DNA from: Cyclobacteriaceae bacterium
GTDB lineage: Bacteria > Bacteroidota > Bacteroidia > Cytophagales > Cyclobacteriaceae
NCBI GenBank assembly: GCA_028289505.1
Contig: JANQPK010000218.1
Span: 1-35,048, forward strand
Direction: 5' to 3'
Length of the DNA: 35,048 nt
The notes beneath the pieces are model-generated. The model did no database searches. It was given only the letters and a program-made list of their open reading frames with translations, and was not told where the DNA came from. Made by a program: the position numbers and the translations under genes. This document shows positions 5,989-29,424 of this stretch, piece after piece. Within the stretch, counting starts at the first letter, position 1; each line of letters opens with the position of its first letter.

Positions 5989-6058
5989 AGGAAAAGTGGT
6001 TATCAATTCTCACCAATATCCAAATTTCCATTGGCGCAACCTTATTTCCAACTTTCAA

Positions 6059-8497
6059 TCATTCATCTTTCAGGTATTCCACTGGATTTAGCTTAATGGA
6101 GCGGATTAATTGGTGAAGGTTTGAGATAACAATCACCAAGATTAAAATCAACAACCCGATGAGATAATTCACAAACCCAAAATCAGTGGCATAGGCAAAA
6201 TTATCTAGCCATTTTGAGGATAGATAGTATACCAACGGCCATGCGGATATACAAGCTATTGAAACAATTATCAGATATTCCTTTAGTACTTCCAGTGTGA
6301 TATTTCCTGAGGATGCTCCCAGAACTTTCCGAATTCCCATCTCCTTACTTCTCCTTCTAAAAGAGTGAGTGGCCAAGCCAAAAGCGCCGAGAGCAGCAAC
6401 GAAAATCGATAGCACCGTAAACAGTAGCATGATTTTACCACTGGCTAATTCGCGCTGATAAGTGCTTGCTATTTCGTCGTTGATAAAAAGAAGTTCCATA
6501 GGTTTATCGGTGTTGAAGGCTTTATAAACCGATTCGATCGCTTCAATTTGATCAGCCATCGATCCCGGGCTCAACTTGATATTCAAGAAATCCGTAAAGT
6601 TTGGATGTTGATTGATATAAATAACCAAGGGATCAACGGATTGATAGAAAGATTTAAAATGAAAATCTTCCACAATACCAATGATTTTACCTTTCCTGAT
6701 CTCACGTTTTCCGGTATAGATGGATAATTCTATATTCTCACCTAAAAGCTCACCTCCAAGGTGGTCAGCAGCAGATCTATTGATGATAAAGGCTTCTGAT
6801 TGATCGGTTATATAATCTTTACTAAAATCTCTACCACTTGCCAACTTTATATCAAAGGTCTTGAGAAAGTCTTCATCAACTCCCAGGGTAGGCCATTCAA
6901 TGCCCTGGAAATTCGGTCTATCCGGAAATTTAACGTCAAAGCCGTGGAAGCTTTCGCTCAACCCAAGGATGGCACTTGAAGCCGCGGTATTTTGGATGAA
7001 AGACAGTTGGCTTAGCTGTGCCTTAAGTTCCTTAACATGCTGAATATCATGATCATCAGCCATCTTTATTGCTACATGGTAGTCCTTGCTGAATCCTGGG
7101 TTTTTAGAGGTTAGGTAATGGTATTGTTGAATTAGGAGCATGGTAATCAGAATCAAGATCATAGAAATGGAGAACTGAGTAGAGACTAGTGTTTTCCTTT
7201 GGATCCCTTTATTCATATACTTACCAATATTGTTTTTAATGGCGTCAATAGGATTGAATTTAATGGTAACTAGTGTCGGGTAAAATCCAGCAAGTCCGGA
7301 GGTGACTATTAGCCCCAACAATACCCAAATTGTAAGTTGATAATTTACCAGCAGTTCCGAAATGGTATTACCATCTATCAATTTTGAGATCAAAGGGTCC
7401 CAAATGATCAGAAGAATCAGTACTGAAAGCACAAATGATATGGCAATAATCAACCAGGATTCTACAAAGAACTGTTGTATCAGTTGATCCCGCTTTGATC
7501 CCATGGTTTTTTTTAGACCAATCTCTTTCATCCTTTTCTGGTTGTTGGCGGTGGTCAGATTCACATAATTGATAATCGCGATCAATAATATGAACATCCC
7601 TAATAATAAGAATAGATTGATATTAATTTGAGTATTGTTTGGTTTCCATTCGCCTTGCCTGTTGGATTGTAAATGGATATCGGTCAACGGTTGAAAAACG
7701 ATTTCAGGATTACTGTCCAGATATCCTGGTTTTGCATTAGTGTTCAAAACATCCTGTGCAACTTTCTCCAATGAAGATAAATTCGCTTCAGGCTCTAAAC
7801 GAGCATATAAAAAGGCAGTAGGATAGAACCAACTGTAATACCAGGGTGCGAATTGATCCAGGCTTTTAATGGAAGCTATGAAGTCAAAATCTAAATGGGT
7901 GTTAAACGGATTGTCTTCAATTACAGCAGTAACTGTAAAAGAAAGTTCGTCAGAACCTTCATCAAAGCTTAGTGTTTGGCCAATTGGATTTTGCTCTCCG
8001 AAGTATTGCAAGGCTTTGCTTTGGGTAATGATCAGTTGAAATGGTGCTTGTAATGAATTCTCCAGAGATCCTTGTCGAACTTCCATCGGGAATATGTCTA
8101 ATATCTCAGGATCAGCAAATACGAATTGGTTTTCTTTGGACTTTTGGTTGGCCTGATATTTCAAATATCCTGGCCAAGGAATCATCCTGGCTAAAACCAA
8201 TTCACTTCCAACTGCCTCATGGTAGAAATCGAGAAAAGGAATCGGAGATCGTGCAGACTCTTGATAACTGCCATCTTCGGTGGAATTAATGGTAATTCGG
8301 TAGATGTTCTCGGCATTGGGAAAATGATCATCGTAACTGGTTTCTTGTACATAATAAAGCAGTAAAACACTGAATGAGATTATGCCTAAGACCAAGCCGA
8401 TTACATTGATGCCTGAGAATATGGGGTTTTGCCTGAAAATTCTGATCGCTATTTTGAGGCTATGGTTCCATAGACCCCTGTTTAGATTAACCTTCAT
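6059..8497 (-). CDS. ABC transporter permease, double FtsX/MacB-like (paralog a, most divergent N-terminus)
   Basis: 812 aa with an N-terminal TM, a large extracytoplasmic domain, a 4-TM FtsX block, a second extracytoplasmic domain and a second FtsX block (KEMGIRKVLGAS). The C-terminus is NPVEYLKDE. The ATG overlaps the upstream ATPase stop by 11 nt. Confidence 0.9.
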   Translation of the reverse strand: MKVNLNRGLWNHSLKIAIRIFRQNPIFSGINVIGLVLGIISFSVLLLYYVQETSYDDHFPNAENIYRITINSTEDGSYQESARSPIPFLDFYHEAVGSELVLARMIPWPGYLKYQANQKSKENQFVFADPEILDIFPMEVRQGSLENSLQAPFQLIITQSKALQYFGEQNPIGQTLSFDEGSDELSFTVTAVIEDNPFNTHLDFDFIASIKSLDQFAPWYYSWFYPTAFLYARLEPEANLSSLEKVAQDVLNTNAKPGYLDSNPEIVFQPLTDIHLQSNRQGEWKPNNTQININLFLLLGMFILLIAIINYVNLTTANNQKRMKEIGLKKTMGSKRDQLIQQFFVESWLIIAISFVLSVLILLIIWDPLISKLIDGNTISELLVNYQLTIWVLLGLIVTSGLAGFYPTLVTIKFNPIDAIKNNIGKYMNKGIQRKTLVSTQFSISMILILITMLLIQQYHYLTSKNPGFSKDYHVAIKMADDHDIQHVKELKAQLSQLSFIQNTAASSAILGLSESFHGFDVKFPDRPNFQGIEWPTLGVDEDFLKTFDIKLASGRDFSKDYITDQSEAFIINRSAADHLGGELLGENIELSIYTGKREIRKGKIIGIVEDFHFKSFYQSVDPLVIYINQHPNFTDFLNIKLSPGSMADQIEAIESVYKAFNTDKPMELLFINDEIASTYQRELASGKIMLLFTVLSIFVAALGAFGLATHSFRRRSKEMGIRKVLGASSGNITLEVLKEYLIIVSIACISAWPLVYYLSSKWLDNFAYATDFGFVNYLIGLLILILVIVISNLHQLIRSIKLNPVEYLKDE

Positions 8498-9188
8498 GTT
8501 TAGGGTGTGCTGGCAGTACCGCCTGATCCGACCTGATCATGCCATCTACCAATTGTACGATCCGACTACCATACTGGGCATTTTCGTCCGAGTGGGTAAC
8601 TTGAATAATGGTCATGCCCTCAGCATTTAACTCCTTAAACAATTCCATGATCACCTGACCCTGTTTGGAATGAAGATTGCCGGTAGGTTCGTCTGCCAGT
8701 AGTAATTTAGGCTGGCCGACAATCGCCCGGGCCACCCCCACTAGTTGTTGCTGACCACCTGACAACTGCTCAGGAAACAGGTCCTTCTTAGCTACAATGT
8801 TAAAGCGGTCCAGAATCTCCGCCACCATGGCCTTCCTTTGCTTGCCCTTAATCCCTTTGTATAAAAGCGGTGTTTCGATGTTTTCGTAAACCGTAAGTTC
8901 ATCTATCAGGTGGTAGGCCTGAAATACAAACCCGATATGATGTTTGTGCAATTCAGATCGCTTGCGTTCTTTAAAATGATGAACGGGCTCCTCCATAAAC
9001 AGGTATTCCCCGGCAGAAGGTTGGTCTAGCAAGCCGATAATGTTCAACAGGGTAGACTTTCCTGCGCCACTAGGTCCCATAATGGTAACAAACTCACCTG
9101 ACTTTATTTCAAGTTTGATCCCTTTTAGTACAAAGGTACGGGTGAATTTGCTGCTGTAATACTTATCGATATTATTGAGTTGAATCAC
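8487..9188 (-). CDS. ABC transporter ATP-binding protein, MacB/LolD family (ATPase B)
   Basis: Walker A GPSGAGKST, Q-loop FVFQ, signature LSGGQQQ, Walker B LLLADEPT, H-loop VTHS. GTG start. Confidence 0.92.
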   Translation of the reverse strand: MIQLNNIDKYYSSKFTRTFVLKGIKLEIKSGEFVTIMGPSGAGKSTLLNIIGLLDQPSAGEYLFMEEPVHHFKERKRSELHKHHIGFVFQAYHLIDELTVYENIETPLLYKGIKGKQRKAMVAEILDRFNIVAKKDLFPEQLSGGQQQLVGVARAIVGQPKLLLADEPTGNLHSKQGQVIMELFKELNAEGMTIIQVTHSDENAQYGSRIVQLVDGMIRSDQAVLPAHPKHEG

Positions 9189-9214
9189 GATTTTAGTGTT
9201 TAATATTCAAAGTT

Positions 9215-11635
9215 TTATTCGTTTCTAATAGCGTCTACAGGATTGGCTAGGGCAACCATAAATACTTGCGCAATAACGGTTATAAATGCTATTATCAATA
9301 CTAACAAGGCTGGTAAAGCAAACATCCACCAACCTATTTGGATAGAATAGGCAAAATTTTCCAACCACCTAGAAATGAAAATCCAAATGATTGGCATTGC
9401 AATAACTGCCGCAATAAGTACTAATTTGAGCAACCCAGAGGCGAGATTCATGACCACATTAGTAACACTAGCTCCCAAGACCTTCCTTATACCAATTTCT
9501 TTGGTACGTTCAGTGGTGATTAGGATGGCCAGACCTAGCAATCCCAAACAGCTGATAAATATTGTAACACCTGTAACCCAGGATAGCAGTTCTGCGGTAC
9601 GCTTATCTCTTTGGTACCAAGAAGCTATTCTTTGATCATAAAACTCATAACTAAATGGTTCATCTGGATAGACCTGATCCCAAATTACTTTCATTTTATC
9701 AATTGCCATTGACCAGCTATTTTTATGATTTGACAGTGCTTCAAACCTAATATGGAAGTTTGTGTTAATTAGGGCATTCGTTATAGCGGTAGCACTTATT
9801 CCCGAACGGATTGGCCGGGTGTTGAAATCAGCTACTACCCCGACGATTGGGTATTGAACACCCTCACTGGAAAGTGATTCCCCCACAGCTTGATCGGGGT
9901 AGTCAAAGCCTAGCTGCTGTAGAAAAGTTTCATTTATTAATAGTTCTCTTATGGTATCACTGTTTGTGATATTTCTTCCCGCAAGTAGCTGTAATCCATA
10001 TACATCGAGATAATGCTCATCTCCATACTTGAGCATCAAATTTGCCTCTCTTGTTTCTTGCTTGCCGCTATGACCGAAACTGCGAGATTGTACGCTGGTA
10101 GATGCCGGACTTGAGCCACCACGGCTTACAGATTTTATCTCAGGTAATGACTCCAATTTTTGTTGAAGCAAGTTTCCGTGACCTTGTTCATCATTTGGAA
10201 TGAAAAATGTGATGATGCCCACTTTGTCAAAACCCATTTCGTGATTTAGGGCATATCTTAATTGTAAAACGACCATCCAAGTTGAAGCAATAAAAAAAGT
10301 AGCCACCACAAACTGCACCACCGTTAAACTCATTCGAAATATAGATCTACTTGCTTGCGCCTGGCTTTTTTGAACCATGGAGATCGGTCTAAACCGCGAC
10401 AGTACCAAGCCGGGGTAGGTCCCAGAAATAAACCCAATCACTAGGCAGAGTGCCAGCAAGAATAGCAGCAAGTAAAGCTCCCATCTATAGGTAAAGCCTA
10501 AAGGCAAAAAGTCATGAAATAATCTTAAAATCGTTGGAGTAATAAGAACTGTACATAGAGCCGCTGTTATACAAAGCAAAATTGATTCTGCTATAAACTG
10601 AGCCGCTATCGAATACCGACTTCCCCCCAGTGTTTTTCTTATTCCAATCTCAGAAGCACGCTGATTTCCCCGAGCAGTGGTAAGGTTAACATAGTTAATG
10701 GACCCTAATACCACCAAAAAGATAGCTATGGCTATCAAACCCAAAAGTGTCGATCTACTAGCTACTGGTCGAATGAAGGCACCATATTGTGGATTGAAAT
10801 GCAGATCACTTAAAGGCTGTAGTTCATGTACTTGTTCTTCAGGCTCATAACCCTGTTGATAGGTATGACGGAGTACTCTCAGTTGTTTTTCTATTGAGGT
10901 TGGTGAAGTAGATTTGTCTAGTTTGACCATCAGTTGAAAATCAGAGTCTACATTATCCCATCGGTCCAAGTACCATTTGTACTTAAGACCCGATCCGTAA
11001 ACTGTTGATACTGAAATAAACTCCTTAAAATCAAAGTCAGTCAGTTTATCGCTGTCCTTGACAATCCCAGACACCACTAGCTGTATAGAATCCTGATAAA
11101 CTATTTCCCGGCCAACAGCCTCAGAAAGATCATTTAGATTGAAATAATTCCGTGCTTTACTCTCTGTCAATACCACCTTAAAAGGGTCCTTTAAAGCGGA
11201 TTCAGGATCTCCAACCAGCCAATGATGTTTGAATAACCTGAAATACCCCGGATCGGTCAATATTACACCATTTTGATGCTTTAGAACTTTGGCTTCATTT
11301 CCCCGAATTCCAGGCATTCTTACCTGGTAATCGTGTATTCTGAAGAAACCAACTGCTTCCTCAAATCCTGTCATGTTATTTTTAACTACCTCCGCCAATG
11401 GAATTGGTACACCGGGATTAGGATACTCCTCTCCAAGGATGTATGATTTGGTGACAACCCTGTAAATGCGGTCGACATCAGCATGATGCTTGTCATAACT
11501 TAACTCATGCTTTACGATTTGAAATACCACAAATGACACACAGATGCTGACGGTAAGCCCAAGCAGGTTTATAATGGTGAACAGCTTATGCTTCCACAGA
11601 TTCCTCCAGGCAGTTACCAAATAGTTCTTAAGCAC
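9215..11635 (-). CDS. ABC transporter permease, double FtsX/MacB-like (paralog b)
   Basis: 806 aa. N-terminus MLKNYLVTAWRNLWKHK, FtsX loops SEIGIRKTLGGS and KEIGIRKVLGAS, C-terminus NPVDAIRNE. GTG start. Confidence 0.9.
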   Translation of the reverse strand: MLKNYLVTAWRNLWKHKLFTIINLLGLTVSICVSFVVFQIVKHELSYDKHHADVDRIYRVVTKSYILGEEYPNPGVPIPLAEVVKNNMTGFEEAVGFFRIHDYQVRMPGIRGNEAKVLKHQNGVILTDPGYFRLFKHHWLVGDPESALKDPFKVVLTESKARNYFNLNDLSEAVGREIVYQDSIQLVVSGIVKDSDKLTDFDFKEFISVSTVYGSGLKYKWYLDRWDNVDSDFQLMVKLDKSTSPTSIEKQLRVLRHTYQQGYEPEEQVHELQPLSDLHFNPQYGAFIRPVASRSTLLGLIAIAIFLVVLGSINYVNLTTARGNQRASEIGIRKTLGGSRYSIAAQFIAESILLCITAALCTVLITPTILRLFHDFLPLGFTYRWELYLLLFLLALCLVIGFISGTYPGLVLSRFRPISMVQKSQAQASRSIFRMSLTVVQFVVATFFIASTWMVVLQLRYALNHEMGFDKVGIITFFIPNDEQGHGNLLQQKLESLPEIKSVSRGGSSPASTSVQSRSFGHSGKQETREANLMLKYGDEHYLDVYGLQLLAGRNITNSDTIRELLINETFLQQLGFDYPDQAVGESLSSEGVQYPIVGVVADFNTRPIRSGISATAITNALINTNFHIRFEALSNHKNSWSMAIDKMKVIWDQVYPDEPFSYEFYDQRIASWYQRDKRTAELLSWVTGVTIFISCLGLLGLAILITTERTKEIGIRKVLGASVTNVVMNLASGLLKLVLIAAVIAMPIIWIFISRWLENFAYSIQIGWWMFALPALLVLIIAFITVIAQVFMVALANPVDAIRNE

Positions 11636-11685
11636 GGTTTGGGAGATTATTATTTAAAGCTATATTCATTTCCACTCAATGCTCA

Positions 11686-14067
11686 TCATTCGCTTCTCAA
11701 TGATTTCACCGGGTCTGCCATTGCTGCTTTTAGTGACTGTCCCGAAACTGTTAATGCTGCTACTAGGATGGCTGTCAGTCCTGCAATAGCAAACATCCAC
11801 CACTGCAATTCCACCCGATAGACGAAGCCCTGCAACCATTTATTCATCACATACCAAGCACTAGGTGTGGCTATTAGCATAGCGATTAGCACTAGACGAA
11901 TAAAGTCACCTGATAATAAGGTCACTACACTGGTAATCGAAGCTCCAAGAACCTTGCGGATTCCAATTTCTTTGGTACGTTGCTCGGCCAGAAATGCCAC
12001 CAGAGAAACGAGCCCCAGGCATGCTACCAGAATGGCAAGTCCAGTGAATATGCCATAGATCTTTCCTAATCGCATCTCTGATTGATATAGACTCTGATAA
12101 TTTTGATCCAGGAAGGAAAAGTAAAAGGGACTATTTGGCGCAAACTTTTTCCAGGTTTTTTCTAAGAATGCTATGGTTCCTGGCACATCATCCTCACTAA
12201 TGCGTACTTCAATATTATTGTAATCGTAGGCAGAAGTACCTAGTAAAATAAACAAAGGGGCGATCTGGTGGTGTAGTGATTGAAAATGAAAATCTTCCAC
12301 AACGCCAATTACTTGATAGTTTTGGTTGTTCCGTTGAATCTGAGCCTGCAGGGGGGCCTCAATGTTTAGCTTTTTAGTAGCGGCTACATTTAAAATCATT
12401 GCCAAGGTATCGTTAGCAAACTCAGGGGAGAAATTACGACCTAATTTCAAGGGAATATCAAACGTGGGAAGAAACTCATAATCCACCAATAGTCTGTTTA
12501 ATTCAAACAACTCATTCTCTTCTTGACCGCGTACCAATAATCCGCCCTGTGAATTAGTAATTAGATGGGGACTTTGACTGGAAGCAGCTATATTTTTAAC
12601 CTTAGGATAACGTTTTACTTCATTTACAAAAGCCTCATAGTGATTTTTCATAGCATTGTTCAACAACACTACATTTTCATGATTATACCCCAGGTTTTTG
12701 CTTTGTACGAATTGCAGTTGGTAATAGACCACCATGGTACATACAATAAGCGCAATAGAAACGCTAAACTGGAATATCACTAAAGCGTTGCGGAAGTTCT
12801 TTCCTGCTCCACCTGTTTTGAATTTGCCACGTAGTGCCTGTACTGGTCGAAATCGGGTTAAGTAAAAAGCCGGGTATAAGCCAGCCAGGATACCAATCCC
12901 AACACCTGCCATCAATACCAACATACCGGTGATCGGATGCTCCAGTAGATTGAGGGATAGTTGTTTATTAGCTAGTTGATTAAATGGATGTCGGAATAAT
13001 TCAGCCAATCCCAATCCAAGCAAGGCAGCTATTACGCTTACCAGTATTGATTCTGTTAAAAATTGATTGATGAGTAGACCCTGACCCGATCCCATGGTTT
13101 TGCGCACACCCACTTCCCTTGCCCGATTTGATGAGCGCGCTGTAGACATGTTTACATAATTGATGCTGGCTATGATTATTATCAACAAAGCAATAATGGA
13201 AAAGGTGTAGACGTATTTGATATCACTATTGGCCTCCAATTCCATCTCCATTTGAGAATGCAAGTGTATATCCTTCAATGGTTGTGCGAAAAAATCGACG
13301 TCAAATTTTTGTAAATCAATCCACTCTTCAATGTTGGGATTGTACTTCAGACAAACTTCTTTAATCTTCTGCGGTATATCTATTGCTGAGCTGTTATCAG
13401 CTAATAGAAAATATGTAGAAACAGTTCCGTTCACGTCTCCCCAGTTTACTACCTGTCTTGTGCGAGGCTCAAATTGTTTGATAAGTTCGAAATGGAAGTG
13501 GGCATTGGATGGCGGGTTGCCGGCTACACCGGTAACCTGATAAATTATACCATCCATTTCAATGGTTTTTCCAAGAATACCCTCAGTCTTGTTAAACAAG
13601 AGAATTGCCAGCTTCTCAGTCAATACTATAGAATTTGGGTCATCAAGGGCGGTATTTGGATTGCCTTCTATTAGAGGAAAGGTGAAGAAATTAAAGAAAT
13701 TGCTATCTACAGCAATTGTCTCTATTCCAGGAAACAACCGATCATGCTGCCTGATGGTATGGTCCCACATCTTTTGCACTCGGAGAGTGGTTTGGATTTC
13801 TGGGATTTCAACATCAATGACTTCAGCAATATGGTAGTTGGTAGAAGCACATTGACTTATGGTTCCATTAAAATTAAACTTTGTGGTTACCCGATAAATA
13901 CTGTCAGCATTACCATGAAAACGATCATAGCTCAATTCATCTATCACATAAAGGGTAATCAGTAAGCTTGCAGCAAACCCAATAGATAATCCAATGACGT
14001 TAGTAAGAGTATAAAACTTATACTTCCATAAGTTGCGGTAGGCTATGGTAAGATAGCTTTTGATCAT
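11686..14067 (-). CDS. ABC transporter permease, double FtsX/MacB-like (paralog c)
   Basis: 793 aa. N-terminus MIKSYLTIAYRNLWKYK, loops REVGVRKTMGSG and KEIGIRKVLGAS, C-terminus DPVKSLRSE. Confidence 0.9.
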   Translation of the reverse strand: MIKSYLTIAYRNLWKYKFYTLTNVIGLSIGFAASLLITLYVIDELSYDRFHGNADSIYRVTTKFNFNGTISQCASTNYHIAEVIDVEIPEIQTTLRVQKMWDHTIRQHDRLFPGIETIAVDSNFFNFFTFPLIEGNPNTALDDPNSIVLTEKLAILLFNKTEGILGKTIEMDGIIYQVTGVAGNPPSNAHFHFELIKQFEPRTRQVVNWGDVNGTVSTYFLLADNSSAIDIPQKIKEVCLKYNPNIEEWIDLQKFDVDFFAQPLKDIHLHSQMEMELEANSDIKYVYTFSIIALLIIIIASINYVNMSTARSSNRAREVGVRKTMGSGQGLLINQFLTESILVSVIAALLGLGLAELFRHPFNQLANKQLSLNLLEHPITGMLVLMAGVGIGILAGLYPAFYLTRFRPVQALRGKFKTGGAGKNFRNALVIFQFSVSIALIVCTMVVYYQLQFVQSKNLGYNHENVVLLNNAMKNHYEAFVNEVKRYPKVKNIAASSQSPHLITNSQGGLLVRGQEENELFELNRLLVDYEFLPTFDIPLKLGRNFSPEFANDTLAMILNVAATKKLNIEAPLQAQIQRNNQNYQVIGVVEDFHFQSLHHQIAPLFILLGTSAYDYNNIEVRISEDDVPGTIAFLEKTWKKFAPNSPFYFSFLDQNYQSLYQSEMRLGKIYGIFTGLAILVACLGLVSLVAFLAEQRTKEIGIRKVLGASITSVVTLLSGDFIRLVLIAMLIATPSAWYVMNKWLQGFVYRVELQWWMFAIAGLTAILVAALTVSGQSLKAAMADPVKSLRSE

Positions 14068-14125
14068 AGTGGTAAAGTTTAGAGTACCTATGAGGATGTA
14101 TTATACTCAAATTCATAATTCGTAA

Positions 14126-16555: not shown

Positions 16556-16584
16556 AGTCTTATTGGCTGCATGCTCTTGCTGTC

Positions 16585-18981: not shown

Positions 18982-19009
18982 GGAGCGAAGAGCTTAGAGC
19001 ATGGAGTAA

Positions 19010-21430: not shown

Positions 21431-22112
21431 GGAACTGCTCTTTTACATTTTCTGAAACTACCCGTCCATCCAATAACCTAATAATTCGGTGGGCGTAATT
21501 GGCGTCATAGGGAGAATGGGTTACCATCACAATAGTGGTACCTTCACGATTTAGCTCCGCCAACAAGCCCATCACTTCATCACCATTGACAGAATCAAGG
21601 TTACCGGTAGGTTCATCCGCCAGGATCAACTTGGGACCAGCCACTACCGCCCGGGCTATGGCTACCCGCTGTTGCTGACCTCCTGAAAGCTGTTGGGGAA
21701 AGTGATTTCGGCGGTTCATGATATGCATCCTCTTTAGTACCGCCTCTGTCATCTCTTTGCGCTGTTTGCTGGGTATTTTCAGGTATAGAAGGGGCAGCTC
21801 CACGTTTTCATAGACCGTCAGTTCGTCAATTAGATTGAAACTTTGGAATACAAACCCGATGGCACCTTTGCGCAGCTTTCCACGTTTGCTTTCTGAATAA
21901 CCCGCTACTTGGTATTCCATAAAATGGTATTCCCCGCCATCCGGATTGTCCAACAAACCTAGAATGTTGAGCAGGGTCGATTTGCCGCAGCCGGAAGGAC
22001 CCATAATGGCCACAAACTCTCCGTCTTTGATGTTTACATTGACCGAATCCAGGGCAGTGGTTTCCACCTCCTCGGTGGTGTATACTTTACTTAAATTGAC
22101 TGTTTGTATCAC
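21423..22112 (-). CDS. ABC transporter ATP-binding protein, MacB/LolD family (ATPase A, canonical motifs)
   Basis: Walker A GPSGCGKST, signature LSGGQQQRVAIARA, Walker B LILADEPTGNLD, H-loop VTHS. GTG start. Confidence 0.93.
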   Translation of the reverse strand: MIQTVNLSKVYTTEEVETTALDSVNVNIKDGEFVAIMGPSGCGKSTLLNILGLLDNPDGGEYHFMEYQVAGYSESKRGKLRKGAIGFVFQSFNLIDELTVYENVELPLLYLKIPSKQRKEMTEAVLKRMHIMNRRNHFPQQLSGGQQQRVAIARAVVAGPKLILADEPTGNLDSVNGDEVMGLLAELNREGTTIVMVTHSPYDANYAHRIIRLLDGRVVSENVKEQFRV

Positions 22113-22148
22113 GTTTTATGCAGTGTTTAGTGTTTATTTTTAAGCAAG

Positions 22149-22237
22149 AGCAACAGTGTTGAGCATACAGGTTGGTGCGCTGAACTTACCGTATGCTGTT
22201 GCCTGCGCGTCCGGCAGGCGGACTTCGCACCGTTGCT
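22149..22237 (-). other. GC-rich multi-hairpin (three-way-junction-like) intercistronic element between adaptor and ATPase genes
   Basis: The outer stem is AGCAACAGTG (22149-22158) with CACCGTTGCT (22228-22237), with one mismatch. Hairpin 1 is AGCATACAGG (22162-22171) with CCGTATGCT (22189-22197). Hairpin 2 is GCCTGC (22201-22206) with GCAGGC (22214-22219). There is no flanking U-run, so it is not a classical terminator. Confidence 0.45.
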
Positions 22238-22239
22238 GT

Positions 22240-23499
22240 TCATTTCAATAACAGTATTTCATTGTCCCCAAAATTTTCATAACTGGAGGTAATCACTTGC
22301 TCACCTTCAGCCAACCCGTCCAACAGCTCATAGTGCAAACTATTTTTTCGACCAAGCTTGATATCACGTTTGGTAGCTTGCGTACCATCTTCATTCAGCA
22401 CAAACACCCAATTCCCTCCACTGGATTGAAAGAATCCTCCGGTTGGCAGTAACAGGGCTTGGCCTGGGTTTCCTAATTCTACCCGTATGCGCAATGATTG
22501 TCCTCGCTTAATGCCCCGAGGAGTCTGGCCCTGGAATTCCATATCAACCACGAAATTGCCGCTGGTAATGGTAGGATATATTTTGGTCACTTCCATTTTG
22601 AAAACTTGTCCCGCCTGGTTTTCATAGGATGCCAGCTGTCCCACATTGATACGCGGTAGATACAATTCATCGACTTCAACTTGCAGCTTAAAGTCGTCCA
22701 CGATATCAATTTGACCCATACGCTCTCCTTGCTGTACTGACTGACCTATTTCTAATTGCTCAGAAGCAAATTGCCCCTCTTTGGGTGCTTTGATCACCAG
22801 GTTATCCAGTATGTTACCGACTGCCTCCAGACTCTTCCACATGCGGGCTTCAGAATCATTGAGTTGTTTCAGCTGTACAGATTTAAGTTCGAGTTCCTGT
22901 TGGTAGGCCGAGTTTACAATTTTTCGGCGCTTGGTGTTATAGTCATAGCGCTCTTTGGCTTCTTCGAATTCTTTTCTTGATATTACTTTTTCCTGGTACA
23001 GCTCCTGCTGTCGATCATATTCAGGTTTGGCCAACTGCAACTGGTAATCCACCTCGGCCAACTCTTTTTCCAAATTCTGGGTATTTTGATCTAGTAAAAG
23101 CCGAGAGGTTCGTAGATTATTAATCTGTTCATAAAGCTGGGCCTCCCGGTTTAGCACTTCAAGTTGAAGATCAGAGTTTGTCAAAGTGATCAAGGCCTCT
23201 CCTTTGCTGACCATAGTACCAGTCTCTGTGTTCAACTCTTTGACAATACCTCCTTCAATGGCATCCAGGTAGTAGGTTTCAATCGGCTGTACAATACCTG
23301 TTTCGGGGATCCATTCCTGGAAATCACCATGCGCCACCTTGGCAATGGTGATCTTGTCTATATCCACATTCAATTTTGACCGGTGGTCGGCAAAGATTAA
23401 GGTGTAGGCCACTAGTAACGTTAAAAGACCACCACCTGCCCAGGTGAGGATCTTTCTAGTAGTCCATTTCTTTTTCTCAAGCTGCCTGTCCATTCCCAT
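22240..23499 (-). CDS. HlyD-family efflux transporter periplasmic adaptor subunit
   Basis: The N-terminal TM anchor (ILTWAGGGLLTLLVAYTLIF) is followed by a long coiled-coil region rich in E/Q/L, then beta-barrel/lipoyl-like segments. The start is set at the ATG at 23499 (MGMDRQLEKKKW; the ATG at 23493 is equally possible). The track's 23544 start would place the promoter-like element inside the coding sequence. Confidence 0.88.
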   Translation of the reverse strand: MGMDRQLEKKKWTTRKILTWAGGGLLTLLVAYTLIFADHRSKLNVDIDKITIAKVAHGDFQEWIPETGIVQPIETYYLDAIEGGIVKELNTETGTMVSKGEALITLTNSDLQLEVLNREAQLYEQINNLRTSRLLLDQNTQNLEKELAEVDYQLQLAKPEYDRQQELYQEKVISRKEFEEAKERYDYNTKRRKIVNSAYQQELELKSVQLKQLNDSEARMWKSLEAVGNILDNLVIKAPKEGQFASEQLEIGQSVQQGERMGQIDIVDDFKLQVEVDELYLPRINVGQLASYENQAGQVFKMEVTKIYPTITSGNFVVDMEFQGQTPRGIKRGQSLRIRVELGNPGQALLLPTGGFFQSSGGNWVFVLNEDGTQATKRDIKLGRKNSLHYELLDGLAEGEQVITSSYENFGDNEILLLK

Positions 23500-23527
23500 A
23501 GTTGACAATATTTTGCACCAGACCGAG

Positions 23528-23543
23528 GCCAACAAGCATGCCA
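23528..23543 (-). promoter_or_regulatory. Candidate sigma-54 (-24/-12-like) promoter of the adaptor/ATPase/permease operon
   Basis: The minus strand reads TGGCATGCTTGTTGGC, against the consensus TGGCACG-N4-TTGCW. The GG is at the correct 10-nt spacing from TTG, but the -12 C is a G. The element lies 28 nt upstream of the ATG at 23499 and exactly 42 nt downstream of the dyad sites. A sigma-54 activator gene is adjacent. Confidence 0.4.
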
Positions 23544-23585
23544 AACCAAAAAAGTGAGTTTAGCTTGATTTAGGGGTGCTGGATT

Positions 23586-23619
23586 GTTCGTAAACGTGCT
23601 ATTTTGTTCGTAAGCGTAC
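23586..23619. promoter_or_regulatory. Two 14-bp dyad sites (GTTCGTAAACGTGC, GTTCGTAAGCGTAC), 20 bp start-to-start; candidate enhancer (UAS) for the NtrC-type regulator
   Basis: The sites lie in the divergent intergenic region between the adaptor operon and the regulator gene. The same motif pair recurs at 28965-28998 with identical spacing to a promoter-like element. Confidence 0.55.
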
Positions 23620-23719
23620 GCCTTATCCCACTACAAAGCCGATAAAGCGGGATCTACTGAAAGGAACAATTTTTGCAAAATTTGAGCGACAGAAGTTTTA
23701 ATTTGTATCTTTTCCATAA

Positions 23720-25111
23720 ATGAACCTAGCACGCCAAGGTAGAATATTGGTGGTAGATGATGATCAAGATGTACTATCTGCTGCCAGACTGTATCTCAAA
23801 AGGCACTTTGGGCAAGTAGATATACTGGACCGTCCTGACTCGATACCAGACTTGCTCCGCCAAGACACTTATGACGTCATACTACTGGATATGAACTTTA
23901 CCAAGGATGTTAGTAGTGGTAAAGAAGGATTCTTCTGGTTGGATAAAATTCTCAGTATCGATCCATCTGCGGTGGTGGTTATGTTCACAGCTTATGGAGA
24001 TGTAGAGCTGGCAGTTAAAGCCATCAAGGAAGGGGCTACGGATTTTACGGTAAAGCCCTGGGAAAACAAAAAACTGCAAGCCACCATACTGTCTGCCATG
24101 AAATTGAGGGCATCCAGGTTGGAATATGAAAAATTGCGCTCCTGGCAGCGTCAGGTAAGCGCCGACATAGACCACAAATACCAGGACATGATCGGGCAAA
24201 GTGAGCCTATGTTGAAACTATATCAGACCATTCAACAAGTTGCCAAAACTGATGCCAATGTTTTGATTTTGGGAGAGAATGGTACTGGCAAGGAACTAAT
24301 TGCCAGGGCTATACACCGTAACTCAAACCGTTCCCAGGAGGTTTTTGTGAATGTAGACCTGGGAGCACTTAGTGAGACATTATTTGAAAGTGAGCTTTTC
24401 GGTCACGTTAAAGGGGCCTTTACAGATGCCAAGGATGATCGTCCGGGACGTTTTGAAATTGCTTCAGCAGGATCCATATTCCTTGATGAAATCGGCAATT
24501 TATCACTCCCCATGCAAGCCAAACTTTTGACTGTGTTACAGAATAAAGAAGTCATTCGATTGGGGTCCAATAAGGTGATTCCCGTTGATGTAAGACAAAT
24601 ATTTGCCACCAACATGCATCTACATCAGATGGTGGGTGAGCACAAGTTTAGACAGGACCTGCTTTACCGGATCAATACCATTGAAATACAAGTACCTCCG
24701 TTGCGGGAGCGCAAAGAGGATATCCCTTTATTGGCAGAATACTTTTTGCAGCATTACGTAAAGAAGTATCAAAAAAGGATTCGATCCCTCAGTGAGTCAG
24801 CACTGAACAGAATGCAAAAATATCATTGGCCAGGAAACGTACGGGAGCTCCAACATGTAATGGAACGAGCTGTTATCATGAATAAAGGGCTGACCTTGAA
24901 TGCTGAGGACTTATTAATCAATACCAGATCATCTGTGGAGGCTGAAGAAGGCGACGATTTGGTTATTTCAAATTACAATTTGGAGCATATTGAAAGACTG
25001 GTAATCAAAAAGATTCTTAAAAAGTACCATGGCAGTGTTACCAAAGCCGCGAATGAATTAGGGCTTACCCGTACCTCTCTATATCGGCGAATGGAAAAAT
25101 ATGATCTTTAA
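23720..25111 (+). CDS. Sigma-54-dependent Fis-family response regulator (NtrC type)
   Basis: Receiver domain (VVDDDQD...ILLDMNF...KP), AAA+ domain (GENGTGKE Walker A, ESELFGHVKGAFTDA which is a GAFTGA variant, IFLDEIG Walker B), and a C-terminal Fis-type HTH (AANELGLTRTSLYRRMEKY). Confidence 0.93.
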   Translation: MNLARQGRILVVDDDQDVLSAARLYLKRHFGQVDILDRPDSIPDLLRQDTYDVILLDMNFTKDVSSGKEGFFWLDKILSIDPSAVVVMFTAYGDVELAVKAIKEGATDFTVKPWENKKLQATILSAMKLRASRLEYEKLRSWQRQVSADIDHKYQDMIGQSEPMLKLYQTIQQVAKTDANVLILGENGTGKELIARAIHRNSNRSQEVFVNVDLGALSETLFESELFGHVKGAFTDAKDDRPGRFEIASAGSIFLDEIGNLSLPMQAKLLTVLQNKEVIRLGSNKVIPVDVRQIFATNMHLHQMVGEHKFRQDLLYRINTIEIQVPPLRERKEDIPLLAEYFLQHYVKKYQKRIRSLSESALNRMQKYHWPGNVRELQHVMERAVIMNKGLTLNAEDLLINTRSSVEAEEGDDLVISNYNLEHIERLVIKKILKKYHGSVTKAANELGLTRTSLYRRMEKYDL

Positions 25112-26453
25112 AAACTTCAGGTTACAAGTTGTTTGCCGAACGCTGATAATCGGACTGTCAATAGGGGGCAGTATTTACTTTTTCCTGGAACACCAGTTAG
25201 GCTATTCACTACTGCTATTGGTAGTAGCTGTGGTAGGTATCTACAATATTATTTACTACCTGGAATCCATTCATCGAAAGCTGGTCTTTTTTCTGGAATC
25301 AATTGAAAATCTTGATTTTACGGTAAAGTTTAGCAAGGATGACAAACAGGGAAAGGGATTTCGGGAGCTGAACAAGGCGTTCAATCAGGTATTGGATGAA
25401 TTTAAGGAGGTACGAGCTGAGAAAGAGGCCCATTTGCAGTATTTGCACACCGTAGTGCAATACGTTAAGGTCGGTCTGATCTCCTTTGATCAGGATGGAA
25501 GGATTGGATTGATCAACAATGCGGCAGTATTGTTGTTGGATATCGGATACATACGTAACCTATCTGAACTAAAGCAGGATCATCATGATGCATGGACACT
25601 ATTTACTGAAATTCAGCCTGGAGAAAGCAAAATGCTTTCAACATCTTCAGAAGATGGTGATCATCAATTGTCTGTGAATGCTACCGAGCTGAGGTTAAGA
25701 GGTAAGGTGTACCGGTCAATCTCTATCACTAATATTCAATCGGAGTTACAGCAGAAAGAAATCGAGGCCTGGCAGAACCTGGCCAAGATCCTGCGGCACG
25801 AGATTATGAACTCAATCACTCCCATAGTATCCCATGTGGAAACGCTAAACGAGATGCTGGAGGATGATACTTCCTGGACCCAGGATCGAAAGCATTTATC
25901 CGCTAGCTCAACTGACGATTTGACCGAAGCTTTGACCACCATAGAAAAAAGAAGTAAAGGATTGCTTCATTTCGTGGATGCGTACCGAAGCTTTAGCGAA
26001 ATACCAACACCAACCTTTGAAATCATTAGGGTTGCCGACCTTTTCGAGCGACTTACAAGATTGTTTCAGGGAGAAATTAAAAACTCAAGTATTACCGTTA
26101 ATCAGGTTATTTTACCCATTGAACTAAAGGTACAGGCCGACCAGGAGTTGATCGATACCGTGCTGATCAATCTATTCAAGAATGCCATGGAAGCGGTATA
26201 TCAGCAGCAAACTCCAACCATTGATTTAAAGGCCTACTTAAACGACTCTGCCAGAGTCATAATTGAGGTTATTGACAATGGGACTGGCATCATCCCGGAA
26301 GCCCAAAGCAAAATTTTTGTACCCTTTTATACTACCAAAGAGAAAGGCTCTGGAATCGGCCTTGCCTTATCCAGACAAATTATGCAAATGCACCGTGGTA
26401 ATTTAACGGTTGCCTCCCAGCCAGGACATACAGCTTTTAGCTTATTCTTCTAG
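25101..26453 (+). CDS. Sensor histidine kinase with two closely spaced N-terminal TM helices (minimal external loop)
   Basis: TM1 is LIIGLSIGGSIYFFL, the loop is EHQLG and TM2 is YSLLLLVVAVVGIYNIIYYL. These are followed by a PAS-like region, the H-box RHEIMNSITP, the N-box LFKNAMEA, and the G-boxes DNGTGI and GSGIGLALSRQI. The start overlaps the regulator stop by 11 nt. Confidence 0.9.
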   Translation: MIFKNFRLQVVCRTLIIGLSIGGSIYFFLEHQLGYSLLLLVVAVVGIYNIIYYLESIHRKLVFFLESIENLDFTVKFSKDDKQGKGFRELNKAFNQVLDEFKEVRAEKEAHLQYLHTVVQYVKVGLISFDQDGRIGLINNAAVLLLDIGYIRNLSELKQDHHDAWTLFTEIQPGESKMLSTSSEDGDHQLSVNATELRLRGKVYRSISITNIQSELQQKEIEAWQNLAKILRHEIMNSITPIVSHVETLNEMLEDDTSWTQDRKHLSASSTDDLTEALTTIEKRSKGLLHFVDAYRSFSEIPTPTFEIIRVADLFERLTRLFQGEIKNSSITVNQVILPIELKVQADQELIDTVLINLFKNAMEAVYQQQTPTIDLKAYLNDSARVIIEVIDNGTGIIPEAQSKIFVPFYTTKEKGSGIGLALSRQIMQMHRGNLTVASQPGHTAFSLFF

Positions 26454-26462
26454 ACCATTTCT

Positions 26463-28874
26463 TTATTCACTGCGAAGTGAATTCACAGGATTGGTGAGGG
26501 CAACTTTGATGGATTGGTAACCTACTGTCAACAATGCAATCAATACGGCCATCAAACCACCGGCCAAGAAACTAAATCCCTCAATATTCACTTTGTAGGC
26601 AAATCCTTCCAGCCAGTTTGAAATAAAGAAATAGGCGATAGGAGCAGCTAATACGAATGAAATTGCCACTAATTTGGTAACATCTTTAGACATCAGCATC
26701 ATTACCTGTGCTGCACTAGCCCCCAGTACTTTGCGAATGCTGATTTCTTTGGATCGTTGTTCGGCGGCATATGCTGCCAATCCCAATAATCCAAGGCAGG
26801 CGATGACAATAGCCAATGAGGTAAAAATGACAAATATTCTCAATAAGTTCATCTCGCTTCGATACAACTGATCCAGGTTATCCTCCAAAAATGAATAGGT
26901 CAATGGTGTGTCGGGTGCATACTGCTTCCATTTGGATTCAATTAATTGAATTTGCTCCTGTGGGTTTCCGGGTTCCAATCTTACTGAAATCACATTTCCA
27001 CTACCCAGTATAATGGCCATCGGTCGAATTCGGTTCTTTAAACTTTCGAAATGGTAATCTTTTACCACGCCGATTACATCGAGCATACTTCCTTGGGGAC
27101 CATTGGAGAAAGTGATGATCTTTTGATTTTCATGATTTTCCCAACCAATTGACTTCATGGCGGCTTCATTAAGAATGATTGCTGATGAATCACCGGGAAA
27201 ATCCTCTGAAAAGTATCTTCCGGCATTCATCTCAATACCTAATGTGGCCAGATGTTTAAAGTCAGCCCGGTACCATCGCAGCAGATGGTCTTGTTCATTT
27301 TCTCCCGCCGCCTTGAAGACGGTACTATTGTCGAGCCGGGGGGGTAAAGAGCTGCTGTTACTCACCATTTTAATGCCTTGGTACTGCTCTAGTTCATTTT
27401 GAAAGACTTGTTTATTGGTACCCAACGCATAGGTGTTTTCAACGATGAGCACATTCTCCTGATCAAAACCAAGGTTTCTGGTCTGCATCATGTTCAGTTG
27501 TTTAAATACTATCAGAGTGCTCACGATTAAGCTGATGGAAATGGTGAATTGAAATACCACCAGGACGCTTCTTATGGCACTACTCCTAAACCCTGCTCCA
27601 ATTTTACCTTTTAGCACTTGAGCTGGCTTAAAAGAAGAGAGAAATAGAGAGGGATAGCTCCCGGCAAGTAGGCCAATGAATATGCTCAAGCCTGTAAATA
27701 CTAATATTAAACGTCCGTCTAGTAATGACGAGAAAGAGATTTCTTTGCCAGCGATGGTATTAAAAACGGGTAGCAGAATCGAAATCAAAGCCATTGCCAA
27801 CAGCGTGGATATTAAACTCAGCAGCATCGACTCCGTTAGGAACTGATTGATGAGACCAACTCTAGTAGCACCAGCGGTTTTGCGAACCCCCACTTCCTTA
27901 GCGCGATTTGCAGACCTGGCAGTGGACAAATTCATGAAGTTGATACAAGCAATAACCACAATAAAAATGGCGATAACCCCGAAAATATATAAATAGGTGA
28001 TATCCCCGTTAACTGCTATTTCATCATCCAGCTTAGATCTCAAATGAATGTCGGTTAGGGGTTGCAATGAAAATCCATAATCACCTCCTTGCGCTTTGAA
28101 CTCTGCCAAAGACATTCCCAGGTATTGTTGAATTTCAGGGCCGATATACTTTTCAATGAAGATCTCAAACTTGGCTTCCAGCTCCTTCCAGTTCACCAAG
28201 GGGTTAAGAACCAAGTAGGTGTAGTAGTTATTGCTGGTCCATTCCCCTGTCAAGTCTCCCATTGTCTTCAACGATACAATCAAATCGAAGTCAAAATGAG
28301 CGTTTTTGGGTGGATCGGCAACTAAACCCGATACCTCAAAATTGGTATCACCAACTTTTAATGATTTACCCACCGGGGTTTCATCTCCAACTTTGTAGTC
28401 GAAATACTTTTTAGCCAATGATTCTGTTAATACTACTTTATTGGGATCTTTTAATGCGGTGTGTTTATCGCCTTGTAGCAGCTCAAATGAGAAGACACTG
28501 AAAAAGTTGGAGTCAGCAATCAGTGCATGATTCTCGATGAATGAACGATCATCTACAGCAACCGGTAAATCATCTCGAAAATCCAGCCGGGTAGCTTCTT
28601 CGACTTCAGGAAATTCTGTAACTGCAGTTTGGGCAAACGGCAAGCAACTGGTAGCTAAATGGGTGGCTTGGTCTGATATTTTGGCTCTGGTGGTAACCCT
28701 GAAAATATTATCGGCCTTAGCATGGAAGCGATCATAACTTAATTCATCAGCAATGTAAACTACAATTAGTAAACTTGCTGCGATCCCTACAGTCAATCCC
28801 AGTATATTGATGAAGGCGTAAATCCTTTCCTTCTGCAAGTTTCTAAGCGCGATTTTTAAATAGTTTTTCAGCAT
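26463..28874 (-). CDS. ABC transporter permease, double FtsX/MacB-like (paralog g, separate transcription unit)
   Basis: 803 aa. N-terminus MLKNYLKIALRNLQKER, loops KEVGVRKTAGA and KEISIRKVLGAS, C-terminus NPVNSLRSE. It is convergent with the kinase gene, with a 9-nt gap. Confidence 0.9.
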   Translation of the reverse strand: MLKNYLKIALRNLQKERIYAFINILGLTVGIAASLLIVVYIADELSYDRFHAKADNIFRVTTRAKISDQATHLATSCLPFAQTAVTEFPEVEEATRLDFRDDLPVAVDDRSFIENHALIADSNFFSVFSFELLQGDKHTALKDPNKVVLTESLAKKYFDYKVGDETPVGKSLKVGDTNFEVSGLVADPPKNAHFDFDLIVSLKTMGDLTGEWTSNNYYTYLVLNPLVNWKELEAKFEIFIEKYIGPEIQQYLGMSLAEFKAQGGDYGFSLQPLTDIHLRSKLDDEIAVNGDITYLYIFGVIAIFIVVIACINFMNLSTARSANRAKEVGVRKTAGATRVGLINQFLTESMLLSLISTLLAMALISILLPVFNTIAGKEISFSSLLDGRLILVFTGLSIFIGLLAGSYPSLFLSSFKPAQVLKGKIGAGFRSSAIRSVLVVFQFTISISLIVSTLIVFKQLNMMQTRNLGFDQENVLIVENTYALGTNKQVFQNELEQYQGIKMVSNSSSLPPRLDNSTVFKAAGENEQDHLLRWYRADFKHLATLGIEMNAGRYFSEDFPGDSSAIILNEAAMKSIGWENHENQKIITFSNGPQGSMLDVIGVVKDYHFESLKNRIRPMAIILGSGNVISVRLEPGNPQEQIQLIESKWKQYAPDTPLTYSFLEDNLDQLYRSEMNLLRIFVIFTSLAIVIACLGLLGLAAYAAEQRSKEISIRKVLGASAAQVMMLMSKDVTKLVAISFVLAAPIAYFFISNWLEGFAYKVNIEGFSFLAGGLMAVLIALLTVGYQSIKVALTNPVNSLRSE

Positions 28875-28906: not shown

Positions 28907-28922
28907 ATCAAGAACTATTCCA
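28907..28922 (-). promoter_or_regulatory. Candidate sigma-54 (-24/-12-like) promoter of permease paralog g
   Basis: The minus strand reads TGGAATAGTTCTTGAT (TGG-N9-TTG, with the -12 C replaced by A). It lies 32 nt upstream of the ATG at 28874 and exactly 42 nt downstream of the dyad pair. This is the same geometry as at 23528-23619. Confidence 0.35.
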
Positions 28923-28964: not shown

Positions 28965-28998
28965 GAACGGTAGCGAACGATATGGTTCGCTAGCGTAC
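28965..28998. promoter_or_regulatory. Two 14-bp dyad sites (GAACGGTAGCGAAC, GTTCGCTAGCGTAC), 20 bp start-to-start; second candidate enhancer
   Basis: This is the same GTTCG-N4-CGWAC-type dyad as at 23586-23619. Here the two sites also form a larger palindrome, TAGCGAAC-N6-GTTCGCTA. Confidence 0.5.
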
Positions 28999-29344: not shown

Positions 29345-29424
29345 ATTCTTCTAACAGAATCTGAAGGAATTGGTTTTTCATTTTCTGTATTTCTTTTTTA
29401 GGATCTATCCAATATGCGGGGTAA

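Follow-up and report, generated by a model that had tools for sequence, protein, structure and literature searches.

Type VII ABC systems of the MacB/FtsX superfamily (MacAB-TolC, LolCDE, FtsEX, YbbAP and BceAB) have so far been characterised with one permease unit per ATPase dimer. An ATPase module that serves many interchangeable, substrate-specific membrane components is familiar from the group II ECF transporters and from multitask ATPases such as MsiK, all of them importers of unrelated folds, and neither among type VII exporters nor for an adaptor-TolC duct do we know of a demonstration of such sharing. An excess of permeases over ATPases is the defining trait of the curated ADOP family, whose description stresses orphan status, with no adjacent ABC ATPase gene. 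Multi-paralog clusters of this kind have already been noted in genome papers: clusters of 8-10 paralogs have been reported before (PMC3914696), among them a 42-kb cluster in Psychroflexus torquis in which ten ADOP paralogs, highly expressed and of unknown function, stand with other transporter genes (PMC3914696), and Dyadobacter genomes hold 28-33 copies (PMC11573002). Our literature searches found only genomic or proteomic mentions of multi-permease arrays and no functional study of one. Here we describe such an array in a Cyclobacteriaceae bacterium (assembly GCA_028289505.1, contig JANQPK010000218.1, positions 1 to 35,048; this whole stretch of 35,048 nucleotides is "the window" below), where seven permeases, a to g, are encoded with two ABC ATPases, A and B, one adaptor and a two-component system. 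We read the locus, with a probability of roughly 0.55, as an inducible type VII (MacB-superfamily) ABC efflux/extraction system with a conserved head and an exchangeable tail of specialised fused permeases that share ATPases.

The genes of the array lie on the minus strand in the order adaptor (22240-23544), ATPase A (21423-22112), head permease f (19010-21430), the variable tail permeases e (16585-18981), d (14126-16555), c (11686-14067) and b (9215-11635), ATPase B (8487-9188) and permease a (6059-8497). Divergent from them, on the plus strand, are an NtrC-type sigma-54-dependent response regulator (23720-25111) and a histidine kinase (25101-26453; HATPase_c), beyond which permease g (26463-28874, minus strand) appears to be transcribed separately, from a promoter that is its own but resembles in type that of the operon. 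The layout and gap values given in a first-pass annotation of this DNA agree base for base with the coordinates of all open reading frames (ORFs), and Pfam bears out its count of seven permeases encoded with only two ATPases and one adaptor. The gaps from adaptor to a are 127, -8, 28, 29, 58, 50, 26 and -11 nt, so that ATPase A overlaps the start of f by 8 nt and ATPase B that of a by 11 nt. The adaptor ORF as listed begins at a TTG (23544), but its true start is probably the ATG at 23493 (MDRQLEKKKW, giving ~417 aa), because relatives start there and the TTG overlaps a promoter-like element. With gaps of -11 to 58 nt besides the 127 nt after the adaptor, the spacing is consistent with one transcription unit from adaptor to a. 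No terminator-like site was found by a terminator scan in any intra-array gap, nor does the Bacteroidota -7 motif TAnnTTTG occur in any of them, and the array as one long transcript is consistent with this; neither the terminator scan nor a sigma-70 promoter scan was enriched, and the latter too placed nothing in the intra-array gaps.

All seven permeases, each of ~800 aa, match both MacB_PCD (PF12704, 94-112 bits) and FtsX (PF02687, 54-96 bits, cut-off 25.5); each contains two MacB_PCD and two FtsX stretches, and alignment-averaged hydropathy predicts eight transmembrane (TM) segments. An AlphaFold (AF2) model of permease f built on 82 sequences (pLDDT 82.8, pTM 0.77) has 8 long TM helices and an N-terminal amphipathic helix, beta-rich periplasmic domains at 46-280 and 455-674 with TM helices on both sides of each, and two short cytoplasmic helices (314-323 and 711-719) at the position of the MacB coupling helix. 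The top Foldseek match of this model is E. coli YbbP (9ge6_A, E 1.3e-19, TM-score 0.47, 15% identity), followed by MacB, a Porphyromonas gingivalis periplasmic domain (3is6), LolCDE and BceAB. Model and matches thus support the earlier proposal that each permease is a complete, fused 8-TM pseudo-dimer. The two halves of f are alike only over TM2-TM3 (35% over 110 aa), and the internal duplication is therefore far older than the split between the paralogs. All three features of a type VII ABC system are present, namely FtsX above its gathering score, MacB_PCD between TM1 and TM2, and coupling helices together with genes for MacB/LolD/FtsE-type ATPases. A review of MacB from 2018 lists only 4-TM and 10-TM layouts (PMC5985334); the window permeases have a direct 8-TM fusion layout. 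YbbP and BceB membership is ruled out on TM count (8 as opposed to 10), and against the YbbP equivalog NF041854 the permeases score at most 21 bits, with a cut-off of 999. The best NCBIfam match for all seven is instead ADOP (TIGR03434) at 227-319 bits, which is below its cut-off of 622.3 bits; the alignment is full-length for b, c, e, f and g, and the best listed stretch is partial for a and d.

The adaptor is a MacA/DarC-like membrane fusion protein with an N-terminal TM anchor, matching Pfam HlyD_D23 and HlyD_3 and, above its cut-off of 94.9, NCBIfam RND_mfp (TIGR01730, 141.9 bits); its best named NCBIfam match is DarC, at 214 bits against an equivalog cut-off of 450. Both ATPases match ABC_tran (a 1e-33 class match for A), and both have DarD as best NCBIfam match (250-275 bits, cut-off 375) while also matching MacB-NBD, LolD and FtsE models. 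DarB, at 91-169 bits against a cut-off of 700, is the second-best NCBIfam match for the permeases. That adaptor, ATPase and permease types all match the DarBCD models best or second best argues for a tripartite pump. ATPases A and B are 56% identical, with Walker A and B, LSGGQ and H-loop intact in each. Orthologs of B recur at 90% at the tail of the array in a close relative (L048) and at 73% in the locus L026 (order M A A P P P P, where M is the adaptor and P any permease), there 3' of an A-type ATPase. On these identities B is a separate conserved lineage beside A, and for that reason an A-B heterodimer on the asymmetric fused permeases is as plausible as two homodimers.

If the permeases use common ATPases yet handle different substrates, conservation should be expected to fall from the ATPase-facing side of the membrane to the periplasm, and the segment-split, all-against-all alignment of the seven paralogs shows this order, with mean pairwise identities of 52% for the pooled cytoplasmic elements, 36% for TM helices and 26% for periplasmic domains. 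The marked divergence of the extracytoplasmic segments that had been noticed by eye is thus real. The termini and FtsX loops, by contrast, are far from the near-identity claimed for them: mean pairwise identity among the seven paralogs is 55% for the N-terminal helix, 47% for coupling helix 1, 70% for coupling helix 2 (KEIGIRKVLGAS) and 53% for the C-terminal tail, a range of 47-70%. Nor are the membrane domains nearly identical across paralogs, the membrane regions overall being only ~36-40% identical. The motifs in question (N-terminal helix, KEIGIRK coupling helix, NPVxxLRxE tail) are moreover generic to the FtsX family, present in MacB, LolC and FtsX sequences, and therefore carry no message specific to this locus. 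Comparison of f with 75 orthologs (48-85% identity) gives 64% identity in the membrane and 58% in the periplasmic parts, a ratio of 1.1, whereas against its six paralogs in the window the membrane-to-periplasmic ratio is 1.58. This is suggestive of periplasmic domains that are constrained within an orthogroup and differ between paralogs.

Evidence of a modular system comes from three close relatives, the loci L048, L052 and L053, which were found through permease f. In each of them the regulator (86-91%) and permease f (79-85%) keep the same positions, the adaptor is 80-88% identical and ATPase A 85-95% (90% for its orthologs at L052 and L053). Conservation within this head is lowest for the kinase, at 64-74%. 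What follows f is different every time. With X, Y, Z, W and V for permeases of the relatives, the window reads M A f e d c b B a, with g beyond the kinase-regulator genes; L048 reads M A f X Y B (beta-lactamase) g'; L052 reads M A (IVP gene) f X d' Y Z ...; and L053 reads M A f W X V .... Beyond f, orthology is limited to d, at 64% in L052 alone, and to g and ATPase B, at 76% and 90% respectively, both in L048 alone; in the three relatives permeases e, c, b and a have no ortholog, and the window contains no ortholog of X, Y, Z, W or V. The g ortholog of L048 stands downstream of ATPase B, with the same upstream elements as in the window. The head (kinase-regulator, adaptor, ATPase A and f) is therefore fixed and the tail combinatorial, and this contrast supports, as evolutionary evidence, a fixed chassis with putatively interchangeable permeases. 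Of the original argument for a shared chassis this much stands, strengthened by the constant head and variable tail of three relatives; the part that leaned on conserved termini does not, the motifs there not being specific to the locus.

Some details of these relatives deserve mention in their own right. The ATPase A gene of L048 (8468-9158) is called as two overlapping 122-aa pieces, which is either a frameshift (pseudogene) or an assembly error, and in the same locus a beta-lactamase-family gene lies in opposite orientation between ATPase B and the g ortholog. In L052 a 23S rRNA intervening-sequence protein gene (PF05635; 6665-7075) sits between ATPase A and f and breaks their 8-nt overlap. 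The 127-nt gap between adaptor and ATPase A in the window (22113-22239) holds a variable insert rich in inverted repeats (AGCAACAG...CTGTTGCT, with GCATAC/GTATGC units), present also in L052 (5751-5898) and L053 (9163-9318) and missing in L048; it looks like a variable repeat of the REP/MITE kind, and the RNA fold predicted for the gap is not significant (z = -1.1).

The arrangement is not peculiar to this lineage. Scanning a genome collection with permease d yielded 47 loci, which with a single exception come from Bacteroidota or from an Ignavibacteriaceae metagenome-assembled genome (MAG), and ORF classification of these revealed a recurrent layout in which kinase-regulator genes are divergent from an optional outer-membrane factor (OMF) gene, an adaptor, an ATPase and two to six or more permeases. 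Its hosts are Adhaeribacter, Sphingobacterium (two loci), Saprospiraceae, Cyclobacteriaceae (two loci), Flammeovirgaceae and one Ignavibacteriaceae MAG. Judged by gene order, then, an arrangement with many permeases is common in Bacteroidota, and the first-pass annotation, which had presented it as a departure from known systems, overstated its novelty; surprise at the locus is limited, since the arrangement is widespread and had been noticed before. An OMF-like gene adjoins the adaptor in five of the arrays (L015, L032, L033, L039 and L042; Pfam OEP confirmed in L015 and L032), which ties the array family to TolC-type ducts. Within the 35-kb window no TolC/OEP gene was found by Pfam scans that took in every non-shadow ORF of 100 aa or more, or by phmmer with a relative's OMF as query, and there is none at L048, L052 or L053; the lack that had been remarked on for the window thus holds, for this lineage only, distant arrays having an OEP gene.

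Members of the same orthogroups also live without an ATPase. The f orthologs fall at 55-85% among the matches listed, and the more distant of them (59-71%) stand alone, away from any ATPase or adaptor gene. The orthogroup of permease a is small (52-60%), and the two members looked up (L055, 9681-12646; L056, 9480-12445) follow a PadR gene with no ATPase nearby; P0122, an a ortholog from one such PadR-linked unit, carries an N-terminal perm_prefix_2 domain above cut-off. On a Cyclobacteriaceae chromosome (L001, 5988-21523) a PadR gene heads a row of four permeases without an ATPase, including orthologs of d (51%) and e (50%), of which that of d carries perm_prefix_2. This prefix (NF038404) is an N-terminal domain of ~70 aa; the window permeases have neither prefix nor PadR. 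The best external matches of e are 55% (L033) and 50% (L001), and among the fetched loci c has none above 43% and b none above 34%. These neighbourhoods suggest two regulatory modes for the same permease orthogroups, PadR-headed units on the one hand and the operon of the window on the other. In the window e, d, c, b and g have no ATPase of their own, f abuts A and a abuts B; in other genomes orthologs of a, d, e and f are true orphans that lack an adjacent ATPase, and use of ATPases in trans would therefore be the norm for the family. A 126-aa gene upstream of solitary f orthologs was considered as a PadR regulator and rejected, having no Pfam match and only a weak, below-cut-off match to SgcJ/EcaC.

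The same orphans lend themselves to a different explanation, namely that the operon is one of mixed function in which only adaptor, ATPase A and f make up a MacAB-TolC-like pump, the other permeases being adaptor-independent and merely co-regulated. Those of the tail could be LolCDE- or YbbAP-like, extracting lipids, lipoproteins or hydrophobic compounds, or FtsEX-like, driving periplasmic partners, and would borrow A/B or other ATPases. In its favour, other genomes have orthologs of a, d, e and f that lack a neighbouring adaptor or ATPase gene, the nearest full-length solved structure, YbbP, works without an adaptor, and only f stays beside adaptor and ATPase A in the close relatives. Yet arrays of two to six or more permeases after an adaptor and an ATPase recur in several families, five of them with a TolC-like gene, which would link the whole array functionally to the pump, and Pfam scans detected no TesA-, EnvC- or LolA-like periplasmic partner gene in the locus. 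We regard this explanation as possible but doubtful.

Could the ratio of seven permeases to two ATPases and one adaptor be mechanistically meaningless, a by-product of a huge mobile family whose paralogs pile up with overlapping or little individual function? The family is indeed enormous (21,383 clusters at 50% identity, E<=1e-30), the Dyadobacter copy numbers cited above (PMC11573002) are of a piece with such accumulation, and tail content turns over between relatives. Against this, the ORFs of all seven permeases are intact and keep their catalytic-interface motifs. The paralogs, 25-42% identical pairwise (a being the most divergent, at 25-31% to the others), are on these values ancient. 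Repeats at the DNA level are limited to coding motifs of 18-107 nt that are 60-86% identical; there are no long repeats and no sign of recent duplication or gene conversion, which we therefore reject. Orthogroups of the f type are held at 55-85% among the matches listed, periplasmic domains included, which points to purifying selection on specific functions, and the P. torquis paralogs are highly expressed proteins (PMC3914696). Redundant accumulation therefore strikes us as very improbable.

How the array might be switched on is suggested by the sequences ahead of its two transcription units. The regulator is of the NtrC type (Sigma54_activat at 220 bits, Response_reg and HTH_8), and sigma-54 control of both the adaptor operon and g is likely. 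Upstream of the adaptor, on the minus strand, motif scanning and conservation pick out an enhancer-like pair, GTACGCTTACGAAC (23606-23619) and GCACGTTTACGAAC (23586-23599), which we propose as a putative response-regulator binding site (23586-23619), and then a sigma-54-like -24/-12 element, TGGCATGCTTGTTGG (23529-23543), with the probable start of the adaptor (23493) 36 nt downstream. Ahead of g, on the same strand, the pair is GTACGCTAGCGAAC (28985-28998) and GTTCGCTACCGTTC (28965-28978) and the sigma-54-like element is TGGAATAGTTCTTGA (28908-28922), 34 nt from the start codon; the L048 g ortholog has an equivalent pair and, at the end of the printed L048 segment, TGGAATAGTTCTTG, which matches TGGAATAGTTCTTGA. 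The enhancer-like pairs consist of GTWCG-N4-CGWWC sites, one pair ahead of each sigma-54-like element. The motif GTWCGNNNNCGWWC occurs in the window only in these two intergenic regions (0.1 expected); as it was derived from them, the informative part is its absence elsewhere and its conservation in relatives. On the adaptor side the site pair and the block TTTGGCATGCTTGTTGGC are kept in L048, L052 and L053, the block with at most a 1-nt change in each, in spacers that have otherwise diverged. TGGCAT/TGGAAT -24/-12-like elements occupy orthologous positions in the same three loci, and TGGCAC/GGCAC-type elements the equivalent place in more distant arrays. A 2025 survey has likewise predicted sigma-54 promoters upstream of COG0577 permeases in Bacteroidia (PMC12316311).

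The other half of the two-component system is the histidine kinase. In translation its two N-terminal TM helices are joined by a loop of about 5 residues, so that it has no periplasmic sensor domain, and for this reason the permeases may be proposed as co-sensors: at least one of them would report substrate load to the kinase, in the manner of Bce-like flux sensing, and several permeases would then widen the range of inducing signals besides, or in place of, the range of substrates. BceAB-type permeases signal to an intramembrane-sensing kinase, BceS, and are structural relatives of those described here, and a kinase-regulator pair invariably adjoins such arrays. However, a cytoplasmic region of ~280 residues between the TM pair and HATPase_c could itself sense, the regulator is of the NtrC and not the OmpR type, the permeases depart from the Bce type in TM count (8, not 10) and in having two periplasmic domains in place of one, contact between kinase and permease is only putative, and the kinase is the least conserved part of the head. 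We consider permease-assisted sensing unlikely.

Returning to the efflux/extraction system with a fixed head and exchangeable permeases, we envisage that kinase and regulator would switch on two sigma-54-type promoters, the first yielding a ~17.5 kb transcript (adaptor-A-f-e-d-c-b-B-a) and the second g. Each fused pseudo-dimer, with 8 TM helices, two unlike periplasmic domains and two coupling helices, would need only one ATPase dimer. Since the permeases outnumber the ATPase genes by seven to two, they would have to take turns on A and/or B, which could form either homodimers or an A-B heterodimer. Docking under an adaptor hexamer, itself joined to a TolC-family channel encoded elsewhere in the genome, is envisaged for at least the head permease f and, plausibly, for the others. 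The divergent periplasmic domains may give each permease a different substrate cavity, so that the array broadens the set of periplasmic or membrane compounds expelled, perhaps peptides, lipopeptides, antibiotics or glycolipids, and in the course of evolution its tail may have been built and swapped from orphan permeases pooled across the genome. The physical sharing of ATPases and adaptor, the efflux direction and these substrates are what we infer; the gene content, the fold, the operon-like spacing, the conserved promoter and enhancer elements, the head/tail pattern and the gradient of identity are what the analysis shows.

Several points weigh against this reading. The ratio of membrane to periplasmic identity climbs with divergence, reaching 1.15-1.34 for three f orthologs at about 48% identity, and because it does so the contrast between paralogs and orthologs is suggestive rather than decisive. 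The cytoplasmic motifs are known to be family-wide, and a gradient of identity would be expected without any locus-specific sharing. Translational coupling to an ATPase is confined to f with A and a with B, use of the adaptor by any permease is putative, and the PadR-linked orphan relatives, which have no adaptor, indicate that permeases can work without a linked one. The window itself supplies no outer-membrane factor. As to the promoters, the -12 boxes of TGGCATGCTTGTTGG and TGGAATAGTTCTTGA are imperfect relative to TGGCAC-N5-TTGC, and a scan of the window for the sigma-54 consensus at up to 2 mismatches is not enriched (25 matches against 29 expected).

It is tempting to go further and to imagine a plug-and-play efflux platform, in which adaptor, A/B and a channel encoded elsewhere are time-shared by at least seven fused-dimer permeases that differ in periplasmic specificity, the cassettes alternate between PadR-controlled, prefix-bearing orphans and a prefix-less sigma-54 operon, and the kinase may read pump load through the permeases. 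This extended scheme is speculative and, taken as a whole, rather improbable.

A few features of the surroundings are recorded here for completeness. Downstream of permease a by 52 nt lies a minus-strand gene (4351-6006) for a pyridine-nucleotide disulphide oxidoreductase with a fused cNMP-binding domain, and the intervening gap contains a sigma-54-like GG-N10-GC match, TGGAAATAAGGTTGC (6036-6050, minus strand); the gene could additionally belong to the transcript of the array or to the regulon, or the match could be due to chance. On the other side, between an amine oxidase gene and the enhancer/promoter of g, is an unannotated 76-aa ORF with two hydrophobic segments (MKNIQIPVYGTTIMLCIYSMTPVLGFTWAVVFNLFLIMNFLLIWMVIRVL...; ~29116-29346, minus strand). 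Farther along the window is a Pycsar-like pair: a cyclase (30678-31808, plus strand; Guanylate_cyc, PADLOC PycC at 6.5e-11) and a 414-aa effector (31833-33077, minus strand) with a C-terminal PycTM domain (Pfam 8.3e-22; PADLOC PycTM/2TM effector) and an N-terminal region of ~240 residues without a database match. The two genes are convergent, 24 nt apart, and hence not one operon, which is unusual for Pycsar. In an unrelated genome, too, a solitary f ortholog has a Guanylate_cyc gene of ~375 aa (L049, 7969-9090) located ~0.9 kb upstream, an echo of the cyclase near g that is possibly a coincidence. Near another solitary f ortholog, on a related contig (L054, 760-2713), a deaminase gene is followed by one for a TIR-STING protein (CAP12-PCTIR_TIR and prok_STING), a defence pair of the CBASS type.

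What is new relative to the earlier genome papers is the conserved head and variable tail, the finding of the same orthogroups in two modes of organisation, and the promoter architecture that is shared, all of which render the hypothesis of sharing testable. The head/tail pattern leads to concrete predictions as to which components are core and which exchangeable, and the locus offers a compact place to study the sharing of ATPases and adaptor, the substrate range conferred by periplasmic domains and the detection of stress by a sensor-less kinase. Bacteroidota, Acidobacteria and their relatives encode tens of thousands of fused 8-TM permeases, which are more numerous than their ATPases, and we know of none with a known substrate or a demonstrated ATPase partner. 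Practical interest attaches to the intrinsic resistance that Bacteroidota of the environment and the gut have to peptides, lipopeptides and antibiotics.

Among characterised systems, the type VII pumps MacAB-TolC of E. coli, A. actinomycetemcomitans and A. baumannii share with this locus the FtsX-type 4-TM unit, a Porter/Sabre-like periplasmic domain between TM1 and TM2, a coupling helix between TM2 and TM3, a MacA-like adaptor with an N-terminal TM anchor and, in related arrays, a TolC-family partner. They differ in that MacB is a 4-TM homodimer with an N-terminally fused ATPase domain, whereas here two units are joined in one 8-TM chain with unlike periplasmic domains and a separate ATPase, seven permeases accompany two ATPases and one adaptor with no TolC gene in the locus, and control is by a sigma-54 two-component system. 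DarBCD, the darobactin exporter of Photorhabdus, is made of the same three parts, namely an adaptor, an ATPase encoded separately and a duplicated permease of ~780 aa; it has been treated as a tripartite exporter, and its deletions cut darobactin titre 2-4 fold (PMC8442675). DarBCD, however, has a 1:1:1 gene ratio and belongs to a gene cluster for a RiPP (ribosomally synthesised and post-translationally modified peptide), and all scores of the window proteins lie below the equivalog cut-offs (NF038008/NF038010/NF038007). Pfam identified no RiPP precursor or radical-SAM gene among window ORFs of at least 100 aa, very small precursor ORFs not having been searched; with no maturase and with DarBCD scores below cut-off, a darobactin-type biosynthetic cluster is ruled out.

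The ADOP and perm_prefix_2 permeases agree in full-length architecture, internal duplication, large paralogous families and the outnumbering of ATPases by permeases, but the window copies score below cut-off and sit in an operon with adaptor and ATPase. YbbAP-TesA, the lipid-hydrolase complex of E. coli, likewise combines a single-chain, pseudo-dimeric permease with two periplasmic domains and an ATPase dimer, but YbbP has 10 TM helices, two of them linkers, as opposed to 8, and YbbAP works without an adaptor (PMC12646458); the window in turn has no TesA-like partner. BceAB-BceRS offers a fused FtsX-family permease, a separate ATPase and a linked two-component system whose kinase has no extracellular sensor domain, and differs in the 10 TM helices and single extracellular domain of BceB, its OmpR-type regulator (NtrC/sigma-54 type here) and the lack of an adaptor. 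Should the plug-and-play scheme prove true, the locus would represent the first system of shared energiser and interchangeable specificity among the type VII ABC exporters, a counterpart on the export side of the group II ECF importers.

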